This document shows, one piece after another, positions 37,889-45,598 of a stretch of DNA of 64,000 bases. Source of the stretch: an uncultured Candidatus Rokubacteria bacterium (GTDB lineage Bacteria; Methylomirabilota; Methylomirabilia; Rokubacteriales; CSP1-6). The stretch spans positions 2,496,001 to 2,560,000 of the forward strand of contig CAVYTA010000006.1 in the NCBI GenBank assembly GCA_963771355.1. Reading direction: 5' to 3'. The notes below the pieces were generated by a model. It ran no database searches and was not told where the DNA came from. It saw nothing but the letters and a program-made list of their open reading frames with translations. Every line of letters starts with the position of its first letter. Position 1 is the stretch's first letter. Both the position numbers and the translations under genes were made by a program.

Positions 37889-38926
37889 CTAGACGGGAAT
37901 GGCGACGCGGGCGAGGACGGCGGGCTCGGCCAGCAGGCGGCCGGCCCCGCGGACGACGCAGGTGAGCGGATCGTCGCTCACCGAGATGGGCAGGTCGGTC
38001 TGGCGATGCAGGAGCTCGGCGAGGCCGGGCAGGAGCGAGCCCCCGCCGGTGAGCTTGATCCCGTTGTCCACGATGTCGGCGGCCAGCTCGGGCGGCGTGC
38101 GCTCGAGACAGCCGTGCATGGCCTCGATGATGGCCTCGATGGGCTCGCGCAGGGCCTCCCGCACCTCGGCCCCACTCACATAGACGGTGCGCGGCAGCCC
38201 CGCGGTGAGGTCGCGCCCCTTCACCGCGAGGGTCTCGGTGTCGCGCCCGCTCGGGTACGCGGAGCCGATGGCGAGCTTGATCTCCTCCGCGCGCCGCTCC
38301 CCGATGAGGAGCCCGTGGGCCTTGCGCACGTGCTGGGTGATGGCGTCGTTCATGTCGTCGCCCGCGATGCGCAGCGAGGAGGAGAAGACGATGCCGGACA
38401 GCGAGATCACCGCGACCTCGGTGGTGCCGCCCCCGATGTCCACGATCATGCTGGCGCCCGGCTCCGAGATGGGCAGCCCCGCGCCGAGGGCGGCGGCGGT
38501 GGGCTCGGCGATGAGGAACACGCGCCCCGCGCCGGCGTGGCCGGCGGACTCCACCACCGCGCGGCGCTCCACCTGGGTGATGCCGGACGGCACGCAGATG
38601 ACCACGCGCGGATGCACGGGGCTTCGCCGCGGCTGCGCGCGGCGGATGAAGTGGTACAGCATCTTTTCCGTCGTGTCGTAATCCGCGATCACCCCGTGGC
38701 GCAGCGGGCGCACCACCTCGATGGTGCCCGGCGCACGGCCCAGCATGGCCTTGGCCTGGGCGCCCACTGCCAGCACCGATCGGTCGCTGGTGTTCAGCGC
38801 CACGATGGACGGCTCGTTGAGCACGATCCCCTGGCCGGGGGCATACACCAAGGTATTGGCGGTGCCCAAGTCCACGGCGAGATCGTTCGGGAAGAGACGG
38901 CTCAGCGTACGGGCGAAGAACGACAT
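37889..38926 (-). CDS. mreB: MreB/Mbl actin-like protein
   Basis: DLGTANT, EPS, RPLRHGVIAD, DIGGGTTE, LTGGGSLL. Confidence 0.92.
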   Translation of the reverse strand: MSFFARTLSRLFPNDLAVDLGTANTLVYAPGQGIVLNEPSIVALNTSDRSVLAVGAQAKAMLGRAPGTIEVVRPLRHGVIADYDTTEKMLYHFIRRAQPRRSPVHPRVVICVPSGITQVERRAVVESAGHAGAGRVFLIAEPTAAALGAGLPISEPGASMIVDIGGGTTEVAVISLSGIVFSSSLRIAGDDMNDAITQHVRKAHGLLIGERRAEEIKLAIGSAYPSGRDTETLAVKGRDLTAGLPRTVYVSGAEVREALREPIEAIIEAMHGCLERTPPELAADIVDNGIKLTGGGSLLPGLAELLHRQTDLPISVSDDPLTCVVRGAGRLLAEPAVLARVAIPV

Positions 38927-39133
38927 CGTATCCCGGAGACGCAACGGGTGTGCCACCGCGGGGGCGAGGAGGATCCGCCCACCCTGCGCCGCATATATGG
39001 GTGGTTGTTGGGCATCTCGGGAACCGAGCGCCGCGCCTGACGGCGCGCCCGCGTCACGAGCGCAACACTTACACGGAATTCATGTAGGGATTACACGGGC
39101 CCGCCCGGTCTGCGCTTGAACTAGACTGTGGCC

Positions 39134-40021
39134 GTGGACACCGTCACTCTCGGCACCGCGACCCCCGGCGGCGGCTTCCCCGTCTACGGACAGGCATTCG
39201 CGGAGACGATCGGGGAGACGGATCCAGCCCTCACGGTACGCACCCAGCACACCAAGGGGAGCACGGAGAACGTGCCCCTGCTCGAGGCGGGCCGGCTCGA
39301 CCTCGCCCTGGTCCAAGGCGAAGTCGCCCACGAGGCCCTCTCGGGCATCGGGCGGCCGCCCGCCGATCTCCGGATCCTCGCCGCGATGTACTCGACCCCC
39401 GGCATGTTCGTGGCGCGCGCCGATTCCGAGTACCGCGTCATCGCGGATCTGACCGGGCGCCATGTGGCGTTCGGCGCCCGCGGCTCCGGGCTCGTGATCC
39501 TCGCGCGCTATGTGCTCGACGGGCTCGGACTCGATCAGGCGCGCGACTTCCACCCCGTCTTCCTCGACGCCGCCGGGGATGGCCCCGCCATGGTGCTGGA
39601 CGGACGCGTGGCCGCGCTCTGGGGTGGCGGCATCGGCTGGCCCGGCTTCACCGCGGTGGCGCGCGGCCCCGCCGGGGCGCGCTTCATCGTGCCCGACGCC
39701 GACGGCATCCGCCGCATCCTGGCCAAGCACGCCTTCCTCAAGCCGATGACGGTGCCGGCCGGCTCTTATCCGGGGCAGAGCGGGGCCATCGCCTCGGTGG
39801 GCTCGTGGAGCTTCGTCATGGCGCGCCCCACCCTGGACGAGGCGCTGGCCTATCGCCTGGCGCGCGCGCTGCACCGCGGGGAAGCCGCCCTCGGCGCGCG
39901 CCTGGCCCAGGCCCGCGAGACCACCGCCGCCAATACCGTGGCCGCCGCGCCCCGAGTCGAGCTCATCCACCCCGGCGCGCGGCGCTACCTCCGCGAGATC
40001 GGGCTCCTGCGCGCGGAGTGA
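39134..40021 (+). CDS. TAXI-family TRAP solute-binding protein, no signal peptide
   Basis: LGTATPGGGFPVYG, TKGSTEN, IHPGARRY; start at 39128 or 39134. Confidence 0.85.
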   Translation: MDTVTLGTATPGGGFPVYGQAFAETIGETDPALTVRTQHTKGSTENVPLLEAGRLDLALVQGEVAHEALSGIGRPPADLRILAAMYSTPGMFVARADSEYRVIADLTGRHVAFGARGSGLVILARYVLDGLGLDQARDFHPVFLDAAGDGPAMVLDGRVAALWGGGIGWPGFTAVARGPAGARFIVPDADGIRRILAKHAFLKPMTVPAGSYPGQSGAIASVGSWSFVMARPTLDEALAYRLARALHRGEAALGARLAQARETTAANTVAAAPRVELIHPGARRYLREIGLLRAE

Positions 40022-41060
40022 CGCGCTGACCCAGGAGCGCGGGGAAGCCGGCCCGGCCTCCCGCCCGCACCTGGTCCAGCGTGCACTGGCGCGGCGCCTT
40101 GTCGGGCCGCCAGCGCAGGAAGCGGGTGCCGTGGCGGAACCGCCCTCCCGTGAAGTGGTCGTAGCCCACCTCCGCCACCAGTTCCGGCCGCAGCGGCTCC
40201 CACTCCGCCGAGCGGTCCGTGCTCCAGCGGCTCGGTCCACCCGGCGCCTGGCCGGTGAAGCCGGGCGGCGCGATGAGCGGACGCAGCCGCTCGAGCAGCG
40301 CCTTGCGCTCCGGGGCGGAGAAGCTGGAGGTGAACCCCACGTGGTGCAGCAGGCCCTGCGCGTCGTAGAGCCCCAGCAGGAGCGACCCCACCACGCGCGC
40401 GCCGGAGGCATAGCGGAACCCGCCCACCACGCAATCCACCGTCCGGGCGCGCTTGACCTTCTCCATCCCGGTGCGGTCGCCGGAGCGATAGTCGAGATCG
40501 AGGCGCTTGGCGATCACGCCGTCCACCGCGCCGCCCGCGCCGGAGAGCCATGCGCGGGCCACCGCCGCGTCGGTGGAGGCGGGCGACAGCGCGAGTCCGG
40601 CCGCGTCCGCCAGGTGCTTCCGTCCGAAGGCCTCGAGCCGCCGGCGGCGCTCGCGCAGCGGCCGGTCGGTGAGCCGGCGGCCCTCGGCGTCCACCAGGAG
40701 ATCGAACACGACCAGCACCGCGGGGGACTCGCGCGAGAGCCGCTCCACGCGGCTCGGCGCCGGATGGATGCGCTGAAGCAGGTCGTCGAAGGAGAGGCCG
40801 GCCCCCTTCGGCACCACCAGCTCGCCGTCGAGGACGAACCGGCGGGCCTTGAGTGCGCGGAGCGCCGTCACCACCTCGGGGAAATACCGCGCCAGCGGCT
40901 GGCCCGACTTCGACTGGAGCTCCACCCCGTCTCCGTCCCGGAAGGCCACACAGCGGAAGCCGTCCCACTTGGGCTCGTACTGCCAGGCCGGCCCAAGCGG
41001 GAGCTCCGTCACCAGGCGCGCCTCCATGGGCGGATACGGCGGCGCCAGCGGCAGCGTCAT
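39963..41060 (-). CDS. ligC: ATP-dependent DNA ligase, LigC-like
   Basis: EPKWDGFR, LDGE, VFDLL, DGVIAK, FRHG...WRPDK. Confidence 0.92.
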   Translation of the reverse strand: MTLPLAPPYPPMEARLVTELPLGPAWQYEPKWDGFRCVAFRDGDGVELQSKSGQPLARYFPEVVTALRALKARRFVLDGELVVPKGAGLSFDDLLQRIHPAPSRVERLSRESPAVLVVFDLLVDAEGRRLTDRPLRERRRRLEAFGRKHLADAAGLALSPASTDAAVARAWLSGAGGAVDGVIAKRLDLDYRSGDRTGMEKVKRARTVDCVVGGFRYASGARVVGSLLLGLYDAQGLLHHVGFTSSFSAPERKALLERLRPLIAPPGFTGQAPGGPSRWSTDRSAEWEPLRPELVAEVGYDHFTGGRFRHGTRFLRWRPDKAPRQCTLDQVRAGGRAGFPALLGQRVTPRAGARSRGGSAARRGG

Positions 41061-41079
41061 GCGAGCGCCCGCGGCCGCG

Positions 41080-42024
41080 TCATCCTGCACTCTTCAGCCG
41101 ATGCCGGCCGCGCCGGGCGAGCACCGGCGCGAACAGGTCGCCCACGCGAGCGAGCCGGGCGGGCACGTTGTCGAGGCGGAAATCTTCCAGCTTGGCCCCG
41201 CGCTCGACTTCCTGCCAGGTCAGCGGCGTGGACACCGCGGCCCGGGGCGACGGCCGCACCGAGTAGGCCGAGGCCAGCGTGCGGCCCCACGCGTTCTGGT
41301 TGTAGTCGACGAGGACGCGCCCGGCGGGCCGGCGGGCCACGCGATACTCCGCGGTGACGAGCGTCGGATGACGCGCGGCGAGGGCGACGGCGAGCGCCTT
41401 GGCCTCCGTCCACACCGCCTTCTGGGTGGGCCCGCGGACGATGGGCACGTAGACGTGGATGCCACGCGAGCCGGTGGTCTTCGGGAAGGAGGGCATGCCC
41501 AGGCGGTCCAGCGCCGTCCGGAGCAGGAGTGCGACCGCCCGCACCGTCTCGAAGTCGGCGCCGCGGACCGGATCCAGGTCGAAGTGGAGATAGTCCGGCC
41601 GCTGCACGTCGTCGCAGCGCGCGTACCACGGGTTCAGGTCGATGCAGCCGAGATTGACCAGCCACAGCAGCGAGAGGAGGTCCTGGACCATCGGGTACTC
41701 GATCACGCTGCCGGAGCCGTGCTCGATGGCGCAGGTCTCGATCCAGGGCGGGCGTGACGCGGGCGCGCGCTTCATGAAGAAGAAGGGGCCCCCGGCGCCG
41801 CCGGGGTAGCGTTTCATCACCATGGCCCGGTCCCGGAGATGCGGCAAGAGCTCGGGCGCCACCGCCAGGTAGTAGCGCAGCAAGTCGCCCTTGGTGAGCC
41901 CGAGGGCCGGCCAGAACGGCTTGCGCAGGTTGGTGAGCATGGTGCTCCGGCCGCGCAGCCGCACCTCCGCGGTGTCGCGATCGGCGGGGATCACCCGCGC
42001 CGCCGGCGGCGCGGCGGGGCTCAC
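41080..42024 (-). CDS. stand-alone LigD-type primase-polymerase (Prim-PolC-like)
   Basis: TKGDLLRYY, KRYP, FDLDP, KTTGSRGIH, DYNQN, YSVR. Confidence 0.92.
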   Translation of the reverse strand: MSPAAPPAARVIPADRDTAEVRLRGRSTMLTNLRKPFWPALGLTKGDLLRYYLAVAPELLPHLRDRAMVMKRYPGGAGGPFFFMKRAPASRPPWIETCAIEHGSGSVIEYPMVQDLLSLLWLVNLGCIDLNPWYARCDDVQRPDYLHFDLDPVRGADFETVRAVALLLRTALDRLGMPSFPKTTGSRGIHVYVPIVRGPTQKAVWTEAKALAVALAARHPTLVTAEYRVARRPAGRVLVDYNQNAWGRTLASAYSVRPSPRAAVSTPLTWQEVERGAKLEDFRLDNVPARLARVGDLFAPVLARRGRHRLKSAG

Positions 42025-42632
42025 GGTCGCGGGGCCAGGCGCGCCGGCCGCGGGCCCCGCCGCCGCGCCCCCGCCACGCCGATGTACTCGAGCTCGCGGC
42101 CCGCGCGCACGCTGCGGAGCAGCAGTCCGCCGCGGCTCATATCGCCCCGGCCCACGAAGTCGGCGGGGAAGCGGAGCCGCTCGCCGAGCACGCCGAGGAG
42201 CGGCTCCAGATACTTCCCGGTGGCCACGCTCCCCAGCAGGACGACCTCGCACTCGGCCCCCGCGGCGCGGGCGAGACGGCGCGCGTCGCGGAGCAGCGGC
42301 ACCCGGTAGCGGCGGTCGTCCGCGGCGATGTCGACCTGCGCGTAACGCCGGAGCCGGCTCAGGTCCACCGGCTCGTCGGCGGGCCGCAGCCCTTCGGCGG
42401 GGGTGATGACGAGCACGCCGGGCACCCCGGCGGGGGGCCGCGCGAAGGCCTCCGCGTAGGCGAGCTTGCCGCGGAAGTAGAGGCCGCTGAGAAAGGAGAA
42501 CACGTCGCCCAGCGGAGCGCCGGGGGCGGCGCGCACCCGCCGCGCCAGGTCGAAGCGGGCGCGCGCGTCGAAGACGAGCCCCGCCCGCACGCCGCCACAG
42601 TGCGCGGGGGACAGCAGGAAGATACGGCTCAC
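42021..42632 (-). CDS. uncharacterised 203-aa protein in the DNA-repair operon
   Basis: GTGA overlaps at both ends; IFLLSPA, SGLYFRGKLAYA, VVLLGSVATGKY, GRGDMSRGGLLL. Confidence 0.8.
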   Translation of the reverse strand: MSRIFLLSPAHCGGVRAGLVFDARARFDLARRVRAAPGAPLGDVFSFLSGLYFRGKLAYAEAFARPPAGVPGVLVITPAEGLRPADEPVDLSRLRRYAQVDIAADDRRYRVPLLRDARRLARAAGAECEVVLLGSVATGKYLEPLLGVLGERLRFPADFVGRGDMSRGGLLLRSVRAGRELEYIGVAGARRRGPRPARLAPRP

Positions 42633-44344
42633 CGGCGGGCCCCCGGCGCCACCGCGCGCGCGAAGGCCTCCGGGCCGCGCGTGTTGAGCACCTCGCCGCG
42701 CCGCACCCACCCGCGCCGCGCCATGGCCACCCCGTAGCGGAGATTCGCCAGCTCGTCGGTGGCGTGCGCATCGGTGGAGATCACGAAGGGGATGCCCCGC
42801 TCGCGCGCGGCCCGGATCCAGCGGGGCGGCAGGTCGAGCCGGTTGGGGTCGCCGTTGATCTCCACCGCCGCGCGGGAGGCGGCCACCACGTCCAGGATCT
42901 CCTCCACCCGGCAGTCGATGGGCGGCCGCGAGAGCACCAGCCGGCCCAGGGCATGACCCCAGACCTTGAAGCAGGGATGCGCCATCGCGCGGGCGATCCG
43001 CCGCGTCATCTCCTCCGCGCCCATGCGATGGCGGGCGTGCACGCTCGCGATCACGATGTCGAGGCGCTCGAGCACCGAGTCGGGATAGTCCAGGCCGCCG
43101 TCGGCGAGGATATCCGACTCGGTCCCCCGCAGGAGCCGCACCGACACCGTTTCCTGGACGCGCGCGATCTCCTCCCACTGCGCCTCGAGCCGGTCCACCG
43201 AGAGCCCGCCCGCGTAGGACGCGGTGGGCGAGTGATCGGTGATGGTCAGATAGCGCAGGCCGCGCGCCTCCGCCGCGCGCGCCATCTGCGCCACCGAGTG
43301 CCGACCGTCCGAGTACACGGTGTGGCAGTGGACGGCGCCCTGGACATCCTCCATGCGGACCAGGTCCGCCGGAAGACTGCCATCCGCCGCCGCCTCGATC
43401 TCGCCCGCCTCCTCGCGGAGCTCGGGCGGCACGTAGGCGAGGCCGAGCCGGCGGTAGATCTCGGCCTCGGTGGCAAAGCCGGCCTCGTCGAGGCGCAGCC
43501 CGCGCGCCTCCGCGAGCCGGCGCAGATGCGCCACGTGCGCCGGCGCGCCGGTGGCGTCCAGCAGCGCGGCCGCGTAGCGCTCCGGCGGCACCACCCGCAG
43601 CTCGAGACCGAGGCCGGTGGCGAGGGTGGCCCGCGCCGAGTCTCGCCCGCGCGCGCCGGCGGCCGCGATCAGCGGCGAGGCGAGTGCGCGCTCGAGTGCC
43701 GCCGCAGGCCGGCTGGAGCCCAGCACCACCACCAGCGATTCGACGGTCTCCGTGGTGCGACGGAGGTCGCCCGCGTAGTCGGCCTGGGTGACCCCGGGCG
43801 CCGCACGCACGTGGGCGAGCAGCGGCTCTGCCACGGCCAGCGCGTCGGGGAGCAGCACCCGGGTCTGCCTCGGCTCGTCGAGGGCGCGAATCTGCTCCAG
43901 GAGCCGCCGCTCCGTCTTCTCGCCCATCCCTTTCACTGCCCGCACCCGTCCGGCCTCGCAGGCCGCCCGGAGCTCCGCGACCGAGGTCACCCCCAGCGTC
44001 CGGTTCAGCGCGGCGATCTTCGCGAGCCCGAGGGAGGAGAGGCGGCTCAGCTCACCCGCGCCCGCGGGCAGCCGCTCGTTGAGCTGCTCCAGCGCCCGGC
44101 AGGCGCCGGTCTGGTGCAGCTCGGTGATCATGGCGGCGAGCCCAGGGCCAACCCCGCGGAGCTCGGTGAGCCGGCCCTCGGCCACGAGCGCGGCGAGCGC
44201 ATCGTCGTCCAGGCGCTGCACGACCTCGGCCCCGCGGGCGTAAGCCCGCGAGCGGAACGGCGTCTCCCCCAACAGCGCGGTGAGGCGCGCCATCTCCTGC
44301 AGGGCGGCGGCGACATGGGCGGACCCGTAACGCTTGGCCTTCAT
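42629..44344 (-). CDS. polX: PolX-PHP protein with degenerate polymerase active site
   Basis: HhH motifs, YVPPELRE; PHP motifs HCHT..SDG, TDHS, STDAH; GDLRR..ETVESLVV where GDxD is expected. Confidence 0.92.
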   Translation of the reverse strand: MKAKRYGSAHVAAALQEMARLTALLGETPFRSRAYARGAEVVQRLDDDALAALVAEGRLTELRGVGPGLAAMITELHQTGACRALEQLNERLPAGAGELSRLSSLGLAKIAALNRTLGVTSVAELRAACEAGRVRAVKGMGEKTERRLLEQIRALDEPRQTRVLLPDALAVAEPLLAHVRAAPGVTQADYAGDLRRTTETVESLVVVLGSSRPAAALERALASPLIAAAGARGRDSARATLATGLGLELRVVPPERYAAALLDATGAPAHVAHLRRLAEARGLRLDEAGFATEAEIYRRLGLAYVPPELREEAGEIEAAADGSLPADLVRMEDVQGAVHCHTVYSDGRHSVAQMARAAEARGLRYLTITDHSPTASYAGGLSVDRLEAQWEEIARVQETVSVRLLRGTESDILADGGLDYPDSVLERLDIVIASVHARHRMGAEEMTRRIARAMAHPCFKVWGHALGRLVLSRPPIDCRVEEILDVVAASRAAVEINGDPNRLDLPPRWIRAARERGIPFVISTDAHATDELANLRYGVAMARRGWVRRGEVLNTRGPEAFARAVAPGARR

Positions 44345-44374: not shown

Positions 44375-45598
44375 TCAGACCGGTGCCACGTCTTCCTGGA
44401 GCAACGGGCGCAGGTCCACGCGGCGTCCCTCGGCGGCAGAGAGATAGGCGCCGTAGATCACGGCGGTGACGTCGCGGGCGAGCGGGCCGCCGGAGAGCGG
44501 CTCCCGACCGAAAACGACGGCTTCCATGAAGTCCTGGATCTCCTGCGGATAGCCCGACGTCCAGTCCTCGTCGGGTTGTGGGCTCGACCAGCCGGCCTTG
44601 GTCTCGAGCTTCTCCACCAGGTACTCATCGCCGAACACCGCGCCGTCGGGCGCATAGGCCTGGACCACGTTGTTCGGGTTGATATTGCAGATCACCATGG
44701 CGCGGGCCCCGTAGGCGATGAGCTGATTGCGGATGCCGCCCAGGACGGTATCGGCGGCGGCGATCTGCGCCACGGTGCCGTCGTCGAACCCGATCAGCAT
44801 GGCGCCCCAATCCTCGACGTCGGCGCCCGCCACCGTCTTGAGGAACTGCGGCCCGGCGACGCGAAAGGTCTCCGTGGCCACGAGATTCGCCGTCTCCGCG
44901 CTCACCGAGACGGGGCGGATGGGACGGCCCCGCAGTCGGAGGCCCTCGTCCGCCTTGAGATAGAGCGCGGCCCCGAGCGGATGGCAGCCCTTTCCGAGCA
45001 GGGAGCCGCCCCCGCCGGTATCCCAGCGCTTGTTCACCGGCGCATGGGTGCCGGAGTGGCTTTCCTCCCCGACCAAGCGCAGGATCGGGCCTCCGGCGGC
45101 GGTGAGCAGGCGGCGCGCCTTCTGTACCGGCGGCGCGTACACCCAGTTCTCGGCGTAGCAGAGGCGGACCTTGGCTTCGCGGCAGGCGGCGAGCACCGCG
45201 TCGGCGGACGCGAGTGCGCGCCGGAGCATCTCGTCCCGCGGGGTGGCGGCGGGACCGAAGAAGCCGGTGAGGGGCTTCTCGACGATGACATGTTTCCCCG
45301 CGCGCGCGGCGGCCACCGCCATCTCCGCGTGGAGATACGACGGCGCGCAGAGATCCACGACGTCCACGTCTCCCGCCGCGGCCACGGCGGCGAGATCCGC
45401 TTCCACACGGCCCACGCCGAATTCGTCCGCGAACTGCTTGGCCCGCTCCGGCCGCGCGGCCGCCACGCAGGTGAGCTCGACGTCGAGCCCGTGCACGTGG
45501 CGGTACGCCTCGGCATGCAGCCGGGCCACGAAGCCTGCACCCACCAGCCCCACCCGCACGCGCCGCCTCTCCGTACCTCTACGACCGCTACCGCTCAT
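44375..45598 (-). CDS. Gfo/Idh/MocA oxidoreductase
   Basis: GLVGAG, HVIVEKP, GGGSL. Confidence 0.92.
   Translation of the reverse strand: MSGSGRRGTERRRVRVGLVGAGFVARLHAEAYRHVHGLDVELTCVAAARPERAKQFADEFGVGRVEADLAAVAAAGDVDVVDLCAPSYLHAEMAVAAARAGKHVIVEKPLTGFFGPAATPRDEMLRRALASADAVLAACREAKVRLCYAENWVYAPPVQKARRLLTAAGGPILRLVGEESHSGTHAPVNKRWDTGGGGSLLGKGCHPLGAALYLKADEGLRLRGRPIRPVSVSAETANLVATETFRVAGPQFLKTVAGADVEDWGAMLIGFDDGTVAQIAAADTVLGGIRNQLIAYGARAMVICNINPNNVVQAYAPDGAVFGDEYLVEKLETKAGWSSPQPDEDWTSGYPQEIQDFMEAVVFGREPLSGGPLARDVTAVIYGAYLSAAEGRRVDLRPLLQEDVAPV

Follow-up and report, generated by a model that had tools for sequence, protein, structure and literature searches.

In mycobacteria, a stand-alone primase-polymerase (Prim-Pol), Prim-PolC, and the minimal ATP-dependent DNA ligase LigC belong to an excision-repair complex. 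What defines Prim-PolC is an extension of its C terminus that contains Loop 3 (residues 294-336) and links the enzyme to short gaps, and these are filled with ribonucleoside triphosphates (PMC5663958, PMC7442782). Prim-PolC prefers gaps of 1-3 nt and works with glycosylases and AP endonucleases. In addition, PolX proteins that are polymerase-dead and active through their PHP domain are a described class of 3′-5′ exonucleases. These noncanonical PolXs are found with LigD in Alphaproteobacteria, and the genomes that carry them are enriched for non-homologous end joining (NHEJ) (PMC9226535). In Ku-LigD NHEJ, 3′ healing, filling and sealing fall to the 3′-phosphoesterase (PE), polymerase (Pol) and ligase domains of LigD. 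Here, we describe a locus that resembles each of these systems in part: a four-gene operon, polX-U-Prim-Pol-ligC, in a 64-kb stretch of DNA from an uncultured Candidatus Rokubacteria bacterium of soil (hereafter the window; G000:C6:2496001-2560000, from a genome of 5.5 Mb that is 99.8% complete).

The operon is likely a split heal-fill-seal module for single-strand nicks or short gaps, with the protein U as a lesion-binding partner; to this reading we give a probability of about 0.55. Blocked 3′ ends would be cleaned by PolX, which is polymerase-dead and has an intact PHP site; gap filling would fall to the Prim-Pol and sealing to LigC. U, for which a YaaA/DUF6884 fold is predicted, would bind at the lesion and keep it in place for these enzymes. 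U may also supply what its partners lack, namely the gap-gripping Loop 3 in the case of the Prim-Pol and the lyase lysine in that of PolX. The activities are predicted from homology, and the substrate and the role of U are presumed. PolX, Prim-Pol and LigC are known enzyme kinds. Since three of the four parts are familiar, the surprise is limited. No description of the operon or of the U family was found in the open-access literature, and the accessible parts of PMC10140301 and PMC4770248 hold nothing on the four-gene operon. This agrees with an earlier note, made from the sequence of the window alone, which knew of no characterisation of this combination.

The four genes lie on the minus strand. 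polX (44344-42629; 571 aa, ATG start) is followed by U (42632-42021; 203 aa, GTG start), Prim-Pol (42024-41080; 314 aa, GTG start) and ligC (41060-39963; 365 aa, ATG start). The polX stop overlaps the U start in a GTGA (42629-42632), the U stop overlaps the Prim-Pol start in another (42021-42024), and a spacer of 19 nt (41061-41079) separates the Prim-Pol stop from the ligC ATG, all as the earlier note had laid it out. These genes form a coupled operon. Their order is not due to chance, because eight other loci have the identical order and the stop codon of U lies inside ATGA or GTGA in 13 of the 17 polX-U loci checked. Codon bias backs all four genes, with a third-codon-position GC of 0.91-0.94; the two other same-strand frames of U reach 0.83, with three stops, and 0.57. 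A sigma-70 promoter search of the operon gave zero matches, and a terminator search gave one match at chance level. Parts of the genes are covered by contigs from RNA libraries (4 of the 16 listed runs), but none of these extends across the operon, and carry-over of DNA is not excluded for them.

Three enzymes of known kinds

The window PolX, the sole PolX match in the whole genome, has an 8-kDa HhH domain, fingers, palm and thumb, and a C-terminal PHP domain, in that order (E 1.4e-100 to Thermus thermophilus PolX). When it is aligned to the latter, its catalytic triad reads S203/V205/E248 instead of DDD. The triad is altered in all 31 PolX rows of its clade, each scrambled in its own way, and is DDD in all 10 controls, which are more distant PolXs of the same phylum (distinct loci, after three duplicate and two unpublished ones were dropped). 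By contrast, all nine metal ligands of the PHP site are present (H339, H341, H371, E409, H436, H464, E495, D525 and H527), and the HHHEHHEDH consensus is complete in 30 of the 31 rows, that is, in every row covering the site. The protein is of the known noncanonical type, predicted to be polymerase-dead and, through its intact PHP site, a 3′-end healing nuclease or phosphatase; the degenerate PolX with a PHP domain of the earlier note is thus confirmed. In the HhH domain, T. thermophilus PolX has a lysine where the window protein has M72, and lysine occurs at this position in 0 of 29 clade rows versus 6 of 10 controls (arginine in the other four). We take this position to be equivalent to Lys72, the lyase nucleophile of Pol beta. 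The role of Lys72 in Pol beta lyase activity has been described (PMC5537341). The scrambled triad, the complete PHP consensus and the association with LigD-type genes are shared with the noncanonical PolXs of PMC9226535, whose text and one supplementary file do not name the phylum of the window. Unlike those, the window PolX shares its operon with U, LigC and a Prim-Pol that stands alone, and has lost the HhH lysine.

The second enzyme is a stand-alone LigD-type Prim-Pol (PF21686). Residues N32, K35, K45, D149, D151, H190 and D240 are intact and kept across the clade; we take them to be the catalytic aspartates and the 5′-phosphate pocket, roles read in part from the alignment. The top match in both sequence and structure is mycobacterial Prim-PolC. 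By sequence, the M. smegmatis enzyme scores 193 bits, and NHEJ Pol domains score 176, 151 and 105. The fold is about equally near to Prim-PolC and to the Methanocella enzyme; the TM score to 5op0 is 0.86. The protein also passes the ligD_pol cut-off (227.3 versus 214.7). Loop 3, however, is missing: the alignment ends at residue 300, versus 290 of 6sa0, with 14 residues left, and the tail of the clade from D296 to the stop has a median of 19 residues (55 rows, including three duplicates and one unpublished locus). Consequently, the window Prim-Pol is not a Prim-PolC proper, and the earlier note's use of mycobacterial Prim-PolC as the model is not supported on this point. It would work as a LigC-linked Prim-Pol does, and falls short of Prim-PolC by the defining feature.

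Finally, LigC is a minimal ATP-dependent DNA ligase that matches NF006078 at 458.8 bits (cut-off 296). It consists of PF01068 and PF04679 only, without accessory domains, and its KxDG motif is intact at K31. Domain and family matches therefore support the identities first proposed for polX, Prim-Pol and ligC. As in the mycobacterial system, a stand-alone Prim-Pol adjoins a minimal LigC at a locus without Ku. In contrast to that system, two further genes, polX and U, are coupled to the pair, and no glycosylase gene was seen among the recurring neighbours of U.

Protein U, its fold and its partners

U is strongly basic (pI 11.2). It has zero matches in Pfam, NCBIfam, PADLOC and PHROG and matches unnamed clusters only in the Atlas, in keeping with its first listing as an unknown fourth component. 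All 7998 scored candidates were assigned to its family, which has 1557 representatives at 50% clustering, and its close homologues are labelled Methylomirabilota or Rokubacteria. The invariant positions are S8, P9 and A10; S49, L51, Y52, F53, R54, K56 and Y59; G81; L133, G134 and S135; and R167. None of them is acidic (D164 is kept in 85% and E180 in 88%). Because acidic residues vary while R54, K56 and R167 do not, the pattern would suit a metal nuclease less well than a role in binding or in lysine chemistry. Searches of plasmids, phages, viral contigs and PADLOC did not find U, which leaves a mobile or defence role unsupported. A prediction of a complex of U with the Prim-Pol scored 0.00, a "no answer" that carries no weight for or against contact.

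The structure model of U is confident (pLDDT 97). In a Foldseek search of a viral library, the best matches are a phage YaaA (E 3.7e-4) and a DUF6884 protein (E 4.2e-4); the matches have a probability of 1.00 and TM scores of 0.48-0.64, and four of the top seven are named YaaA or DUF6884. A comparison with 48,161 solved chains puts E. coli YaaA and AF0587 joint first at Z 5.4 (for YaaA, a root-mean-square deviation of 5.1 over 159 aligned residues). In a joint alignment, moreover, the motifs of U stand in the same order as those of YaaA and DUF6884. U is thus predicted to have the YaaA/DUF6884 "cantaloupe" alpha/beta fold, with modest support from solved YaaA. Other comparisons are fainter. 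Foldseek against the PDB gave zero matches for the model at E<=0.001, with YaaA reaching only E 0.35, and a hidden Markov model search of PDB sequences gave chance-level matches only. The place of the CxxxK motif is taken in U by LLSPA/SPAxxxG, and that of LSAxxG by ITPxxG(L). U also stays below the Pfam cut-offs of PF21818 (DUF6884) and PF03883 (YaaA). Since the likeness of fold comes with faint sequence support and no Pfam cut-off is reached, U is a separate family of this fold, outside both. One other family of the phylum, in which U was not detected, has a small group of YaaA-like proteins (PF03883; 12 homologues found; L154:1276-1923).

What is known of the two relatives concerns DNA damage. 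DUF6884 and YaaA share a basic cleft (PMC11701544), and B. subtilis YfjM, a DUF6884 protein, is enriched on abasic and ribonucleotide lesions (PMC10220248; PMC11701544). YaaA co-purifies with DNA, limits peroxide damage and acts in the peroxide response, its molecular function being unknown (PMC4834066). U resembles both in fold, motif order and strongly basic character. It differs from them in its kinase fusions and its operons with ligase and Prim-Pol, which the accessible parts of these papers do not describe for YaaA or DUF6884.

Such fusions are frequent among longer homologues. A P-loop kinase is present in 113 of the 120 listed (of 341), 86 times before U and 27 times behind it. A quick tree of U domains places the C-terminal kinase fusions at several spots, although it does not prove several origins. 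One rearranged locus (L223:24-5076) encodes Prim-Pol, LigC, U and a stand-alone kinase. Its array lies directly behind a gene that reads like the C-terminal part of a polymerase, presumably of the DnaE2 type, which suggests a damage-inducible context. The slot before U can also hold the PE of LigD instead of PolX: in L094, a stand-alone PE overlaps the U start through a GTGA, and in L239 the PE is in two pieces. From the kinase fusions and the PolX and PE neighbours it follows that U travels with enzymes of 3′ healing, 5′ healing, filling and sealing. Single long proteins in which U seems joined to PolX, PE, Prim-Pol or some regulator (P0271, P0272, P0275, P0335 and P0377) contain garbled stretches; they were rejected as fusions and are taken for frameshift artefacts of adjoining genes.

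The kinase also bears on whether the module repairs RNA or RNA/DNA junctions, such as broken RNA or ribonucleotides that the Prim-Pol leaves behind, in the manner of kinase-ligase healing systems. The enrichment of YfjM on ribonucleotide-containing DNA and the use of rNTPs by Prim-PolC would suit such a function, as would a weak resemblance of the fused kinase to bacterial Pnkp kinase domains (E 5e-5). Nevertheless, this kinase is far nearer to the kinase domain of mammalian PNKP, a DNA-repair enzyme (E 2.5e-11), the ligase is a LigC DNA ligase, and no RNA ligase was seen among the recurring neighbours. We thus regard a role in RNA repair as very improbable.

Conservation of the array

The surroundings of U were compared in 119 distinct loci, made up of 40 of the 48 matches in the phylum, four more, and 80 GTDB matches, the best of over 600; three duplicates and two unpublished loci are left out, and the GTDB part is biased to the closest matches. 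The full array occurs in 8 of these loci, all in the phylum of the window. Sub-arrays are polX-U-Pol (7), U-Pol-ligC (10), U-Pol (27), polX-U (4) and a U-ligC pair (18, all in Verrucomicrobiota). Altogether, 74 of the 119 loci have an adjacent array or sub-array in this order and none has one out of order; the order is preserved in Acidobacteriota, Verrucomicrobiota and other phyla. LigD-type parts are close by in 10, and polX-ligC and Pol-ligC pairs are also seen. The conserved unit is therefore U with whatever end-processing genes adjoin it, and the complete four-gene set is narrow. Of the gene set whose conservation the earlier note had proposed to check by a neighbourhood survey, the sub-arrays hold across several phyla, while the full set is confined to one. 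Among 80 metagenome loci retrieved with a kinase-fusion query, many of them short, a Prim-Pol or LigD Pol is found in 34, PolX in 11, a ligase in 10, PE in 6 and a kinase in 10.

At the level of genomes, U is present in 46 of 121 of the phylum, in two families only. In these 121 genomes, it accompanies the PolX type in 18 of 18 cases, the Prim-Pol type in 35 of 36 and the LigC type in 19 of 20; a genome without U (G060), whose Prim-Pol lies at a contig edge, is the exception. Of 48 U genomes from other phyla, 15 have the Prim-Pol type and 42 have a LigC. U thus occurs independently of any single partner gene. As related genomes are not independent, no statistic is given for this co-occurrence.

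These counts bear on whether U might be a YaaA-like, general DNA-binding or DNA-protecting protein of oxidative stress that is merely co-regulated with its neighbours, the array being a lineage-specific gathering of stress genes. The role of YaaA in the peroxide response and the restriction of the full array to eight loci of one phylum are compatible with this, and 45 of the 119 loci have U without an adjacent partner of the same clades (one of the 45, L158, is a misfiled, frameshifted U-Prim-Pol pair). Mere co-regulation, however, would not account for the translational coupling of U to PolX, Prim-Pol and PE with LigC close behind, for kinase fusions in both orientations, or for the order kept in sub-arrays of distant phyla, and we consider it improbable.

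Several other features were seen around U and the window operon. In 19 loci of the phylum, U-Prim-Pol has a conserved open reading frame (ORF) of about 166 aa and of unknown family (L069:6078-6578) in its vicinity. Decay or assembly errors are apparent in some loci, with a frameshifted U (L158), a frameshifted Prim-Pol and ligC (L076) and a broken polX (L047). In the window, a Gfo/Idh/MocA oxidoreductase gene (44375-45598, minus strand) ends 30 nt before polX and may share its transcript; it was rejected as an operon member, as it precedes polX in only four distinct close loci (about 80% identity). On the other side, an NMT1/TAXI-type solute-binding gene (39128-40021, plus strand) converges on ligC with an overlap of 59 nt, and the basic low-complexity tail of LigC lies within this overlap. 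mreB (37889-38956, minus strand) lies on the downstream side of the operon and has the same placement in four close loci.

Ku and the function of the operon

A genome-wide search for Ku found none in the window, as the earlier note had reported. It gave two matches elsewhere, at C5:122200 and C6:1250411. The first gene is divergent from a fused PE-ligase-Pol LigD (C5:121897-126346), with which it forms an ordinary Ku-LigD pair; the convergent gene after this pair is one that we take to be DUF72-like. The second has no LigD, ligase or Pol match among the ORFs within about 7 kb. A second LigD-type locus (C7:594883-597119), in which a PE-ligase ORF ends just before the Pol domain, is split or broken, and C5 also encodes a longer ATP-dependent ligase. 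Since a complete Ku-LigD pair is present, ordinary end joining is encoded outside the operon, which is an additional module. It would share the three kinds of step of Ku-LigD NHEJ, healing, filling and sealing, and, unlike it, has them in separate genes, with Ku off the locus and U added.

The distribution of Ku can be read in another way, in which the operon would serve Ku-dependent end joining as an auxiliary arm: LigD would be split into PolX-PHP, Pol and ligase genes, Ku would come from elsewhere, and U would be an accessory that binds or cleans ends. Several findings tell against the heal-fill-seal reading, some of them in favour of this one. Ku is found in 45 of the 46 U-bearing genomes of the phylum, whereas the two families concerned have it in 23 of their 35 genomes without U. 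Outside the phylum, 45 of 50 U genomes have Ku (43 of 48 when G129 and G136, which are unpublished and bear on no further claim, are set aside). In eight loci (L043, L044, L075, L205, L207, L211, L212 and L214), U stands directly behind a full-length or partial LigD. The missing Loop 3 is a trait shared with NHEJ Pol domains, to which the passing of the ligD_pol cut-off also points, and Ku stimulates Agrobacterium LigC2 and LigC3 in trans (PMC1920237). The link of noncanonical PolX to NHEJ and LigD described above and the Ku gene that lacks a nearby LigD fit as well. To these must be added the loci in which U lacks partners, the kinship of the genomes counted, and the limits of the fold assignment: Z 5.4 lies below the tool's own caution level of 8 and would be weak if alone, the U profile matches a small YaaA-like alignment with an hhalign probability of 1.5% and only the second motif aligned, and DUF6884 is matched by 1 of 89 U members (E 0.024) and not by the window U. 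The five loci with a full PE-ligase-Pol LigD directly before U (L043, L205, L207, L211 and L214) represent a second coupling of U to end-processing enzymes.

Against a Ku-dependent arm, Ku lies within 5 kb of U in only 2 of the 119 loci and in none of the 80 metagenome loci, many of which are short. In addition, a complete Ku-LigD pair already serves the genome, the Prim-Pol scores slightly nearer to Prim-PolC than to NHEJ Pol domains, and Ku is common in the two families anyway (68 of 81 genomes). In one genome, G012, which is 94% complete, U occurs together with Prim-Pol and LigC, and no Ku match was found. Altogether, we find such an arm rather unlikely. The earlier note held that constant company of Ku would make this ordinary NHEJ, an objection that half applies, as nearly all genomes with U encode Ku and hardly any U locus does. 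Its self-contained trim-fill-ligate pathway stands as a conserved repair cluster with intact predicted sites and as a locus free of Ku, in a genome with two Ku genes, a full LigD and a PE-ligase plus Pol locus. Given these two genes, the presence of Ku in nearly all U genomes and the stimulation of LigC by Ku, independence from Ku is unsupported beyond the locus.

Within the heal-fill-seal reading, U might have a larger part. It could be an end-processing enzyme or lesion sensor and the hub of a Ku-independent single-strand-break repair, which would be the first biochemical role for a YaaA fold; this proposal is tentative, and we would sooner doubt than expect it. U would recognise or flip out an abasic site, a ribonucleotide or a blocked end, and its invariant lysine would possibly remove the lesion, standing in for Loop 3 and for the lyase lysine of PolX.

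Whatever its exact part, the U family ties the YaaA fold, by operons and fusions, to defined enzymes of end healing, filling and sealing. The operon also presents a stand-alone Prim-Pol, paired with LigC, that differs in type from mycobacterial Prim-PolC, and a polymerase-dead PolX that sits where the phosphoesterase of LigD can sit. If U were indeed a hub, this would be a modular pathway, with PHP or PE for 3′ ends, a kinase for 5′ ends, Prim-Pol and LigC, that has spread through abundant uncultured soil phyla.

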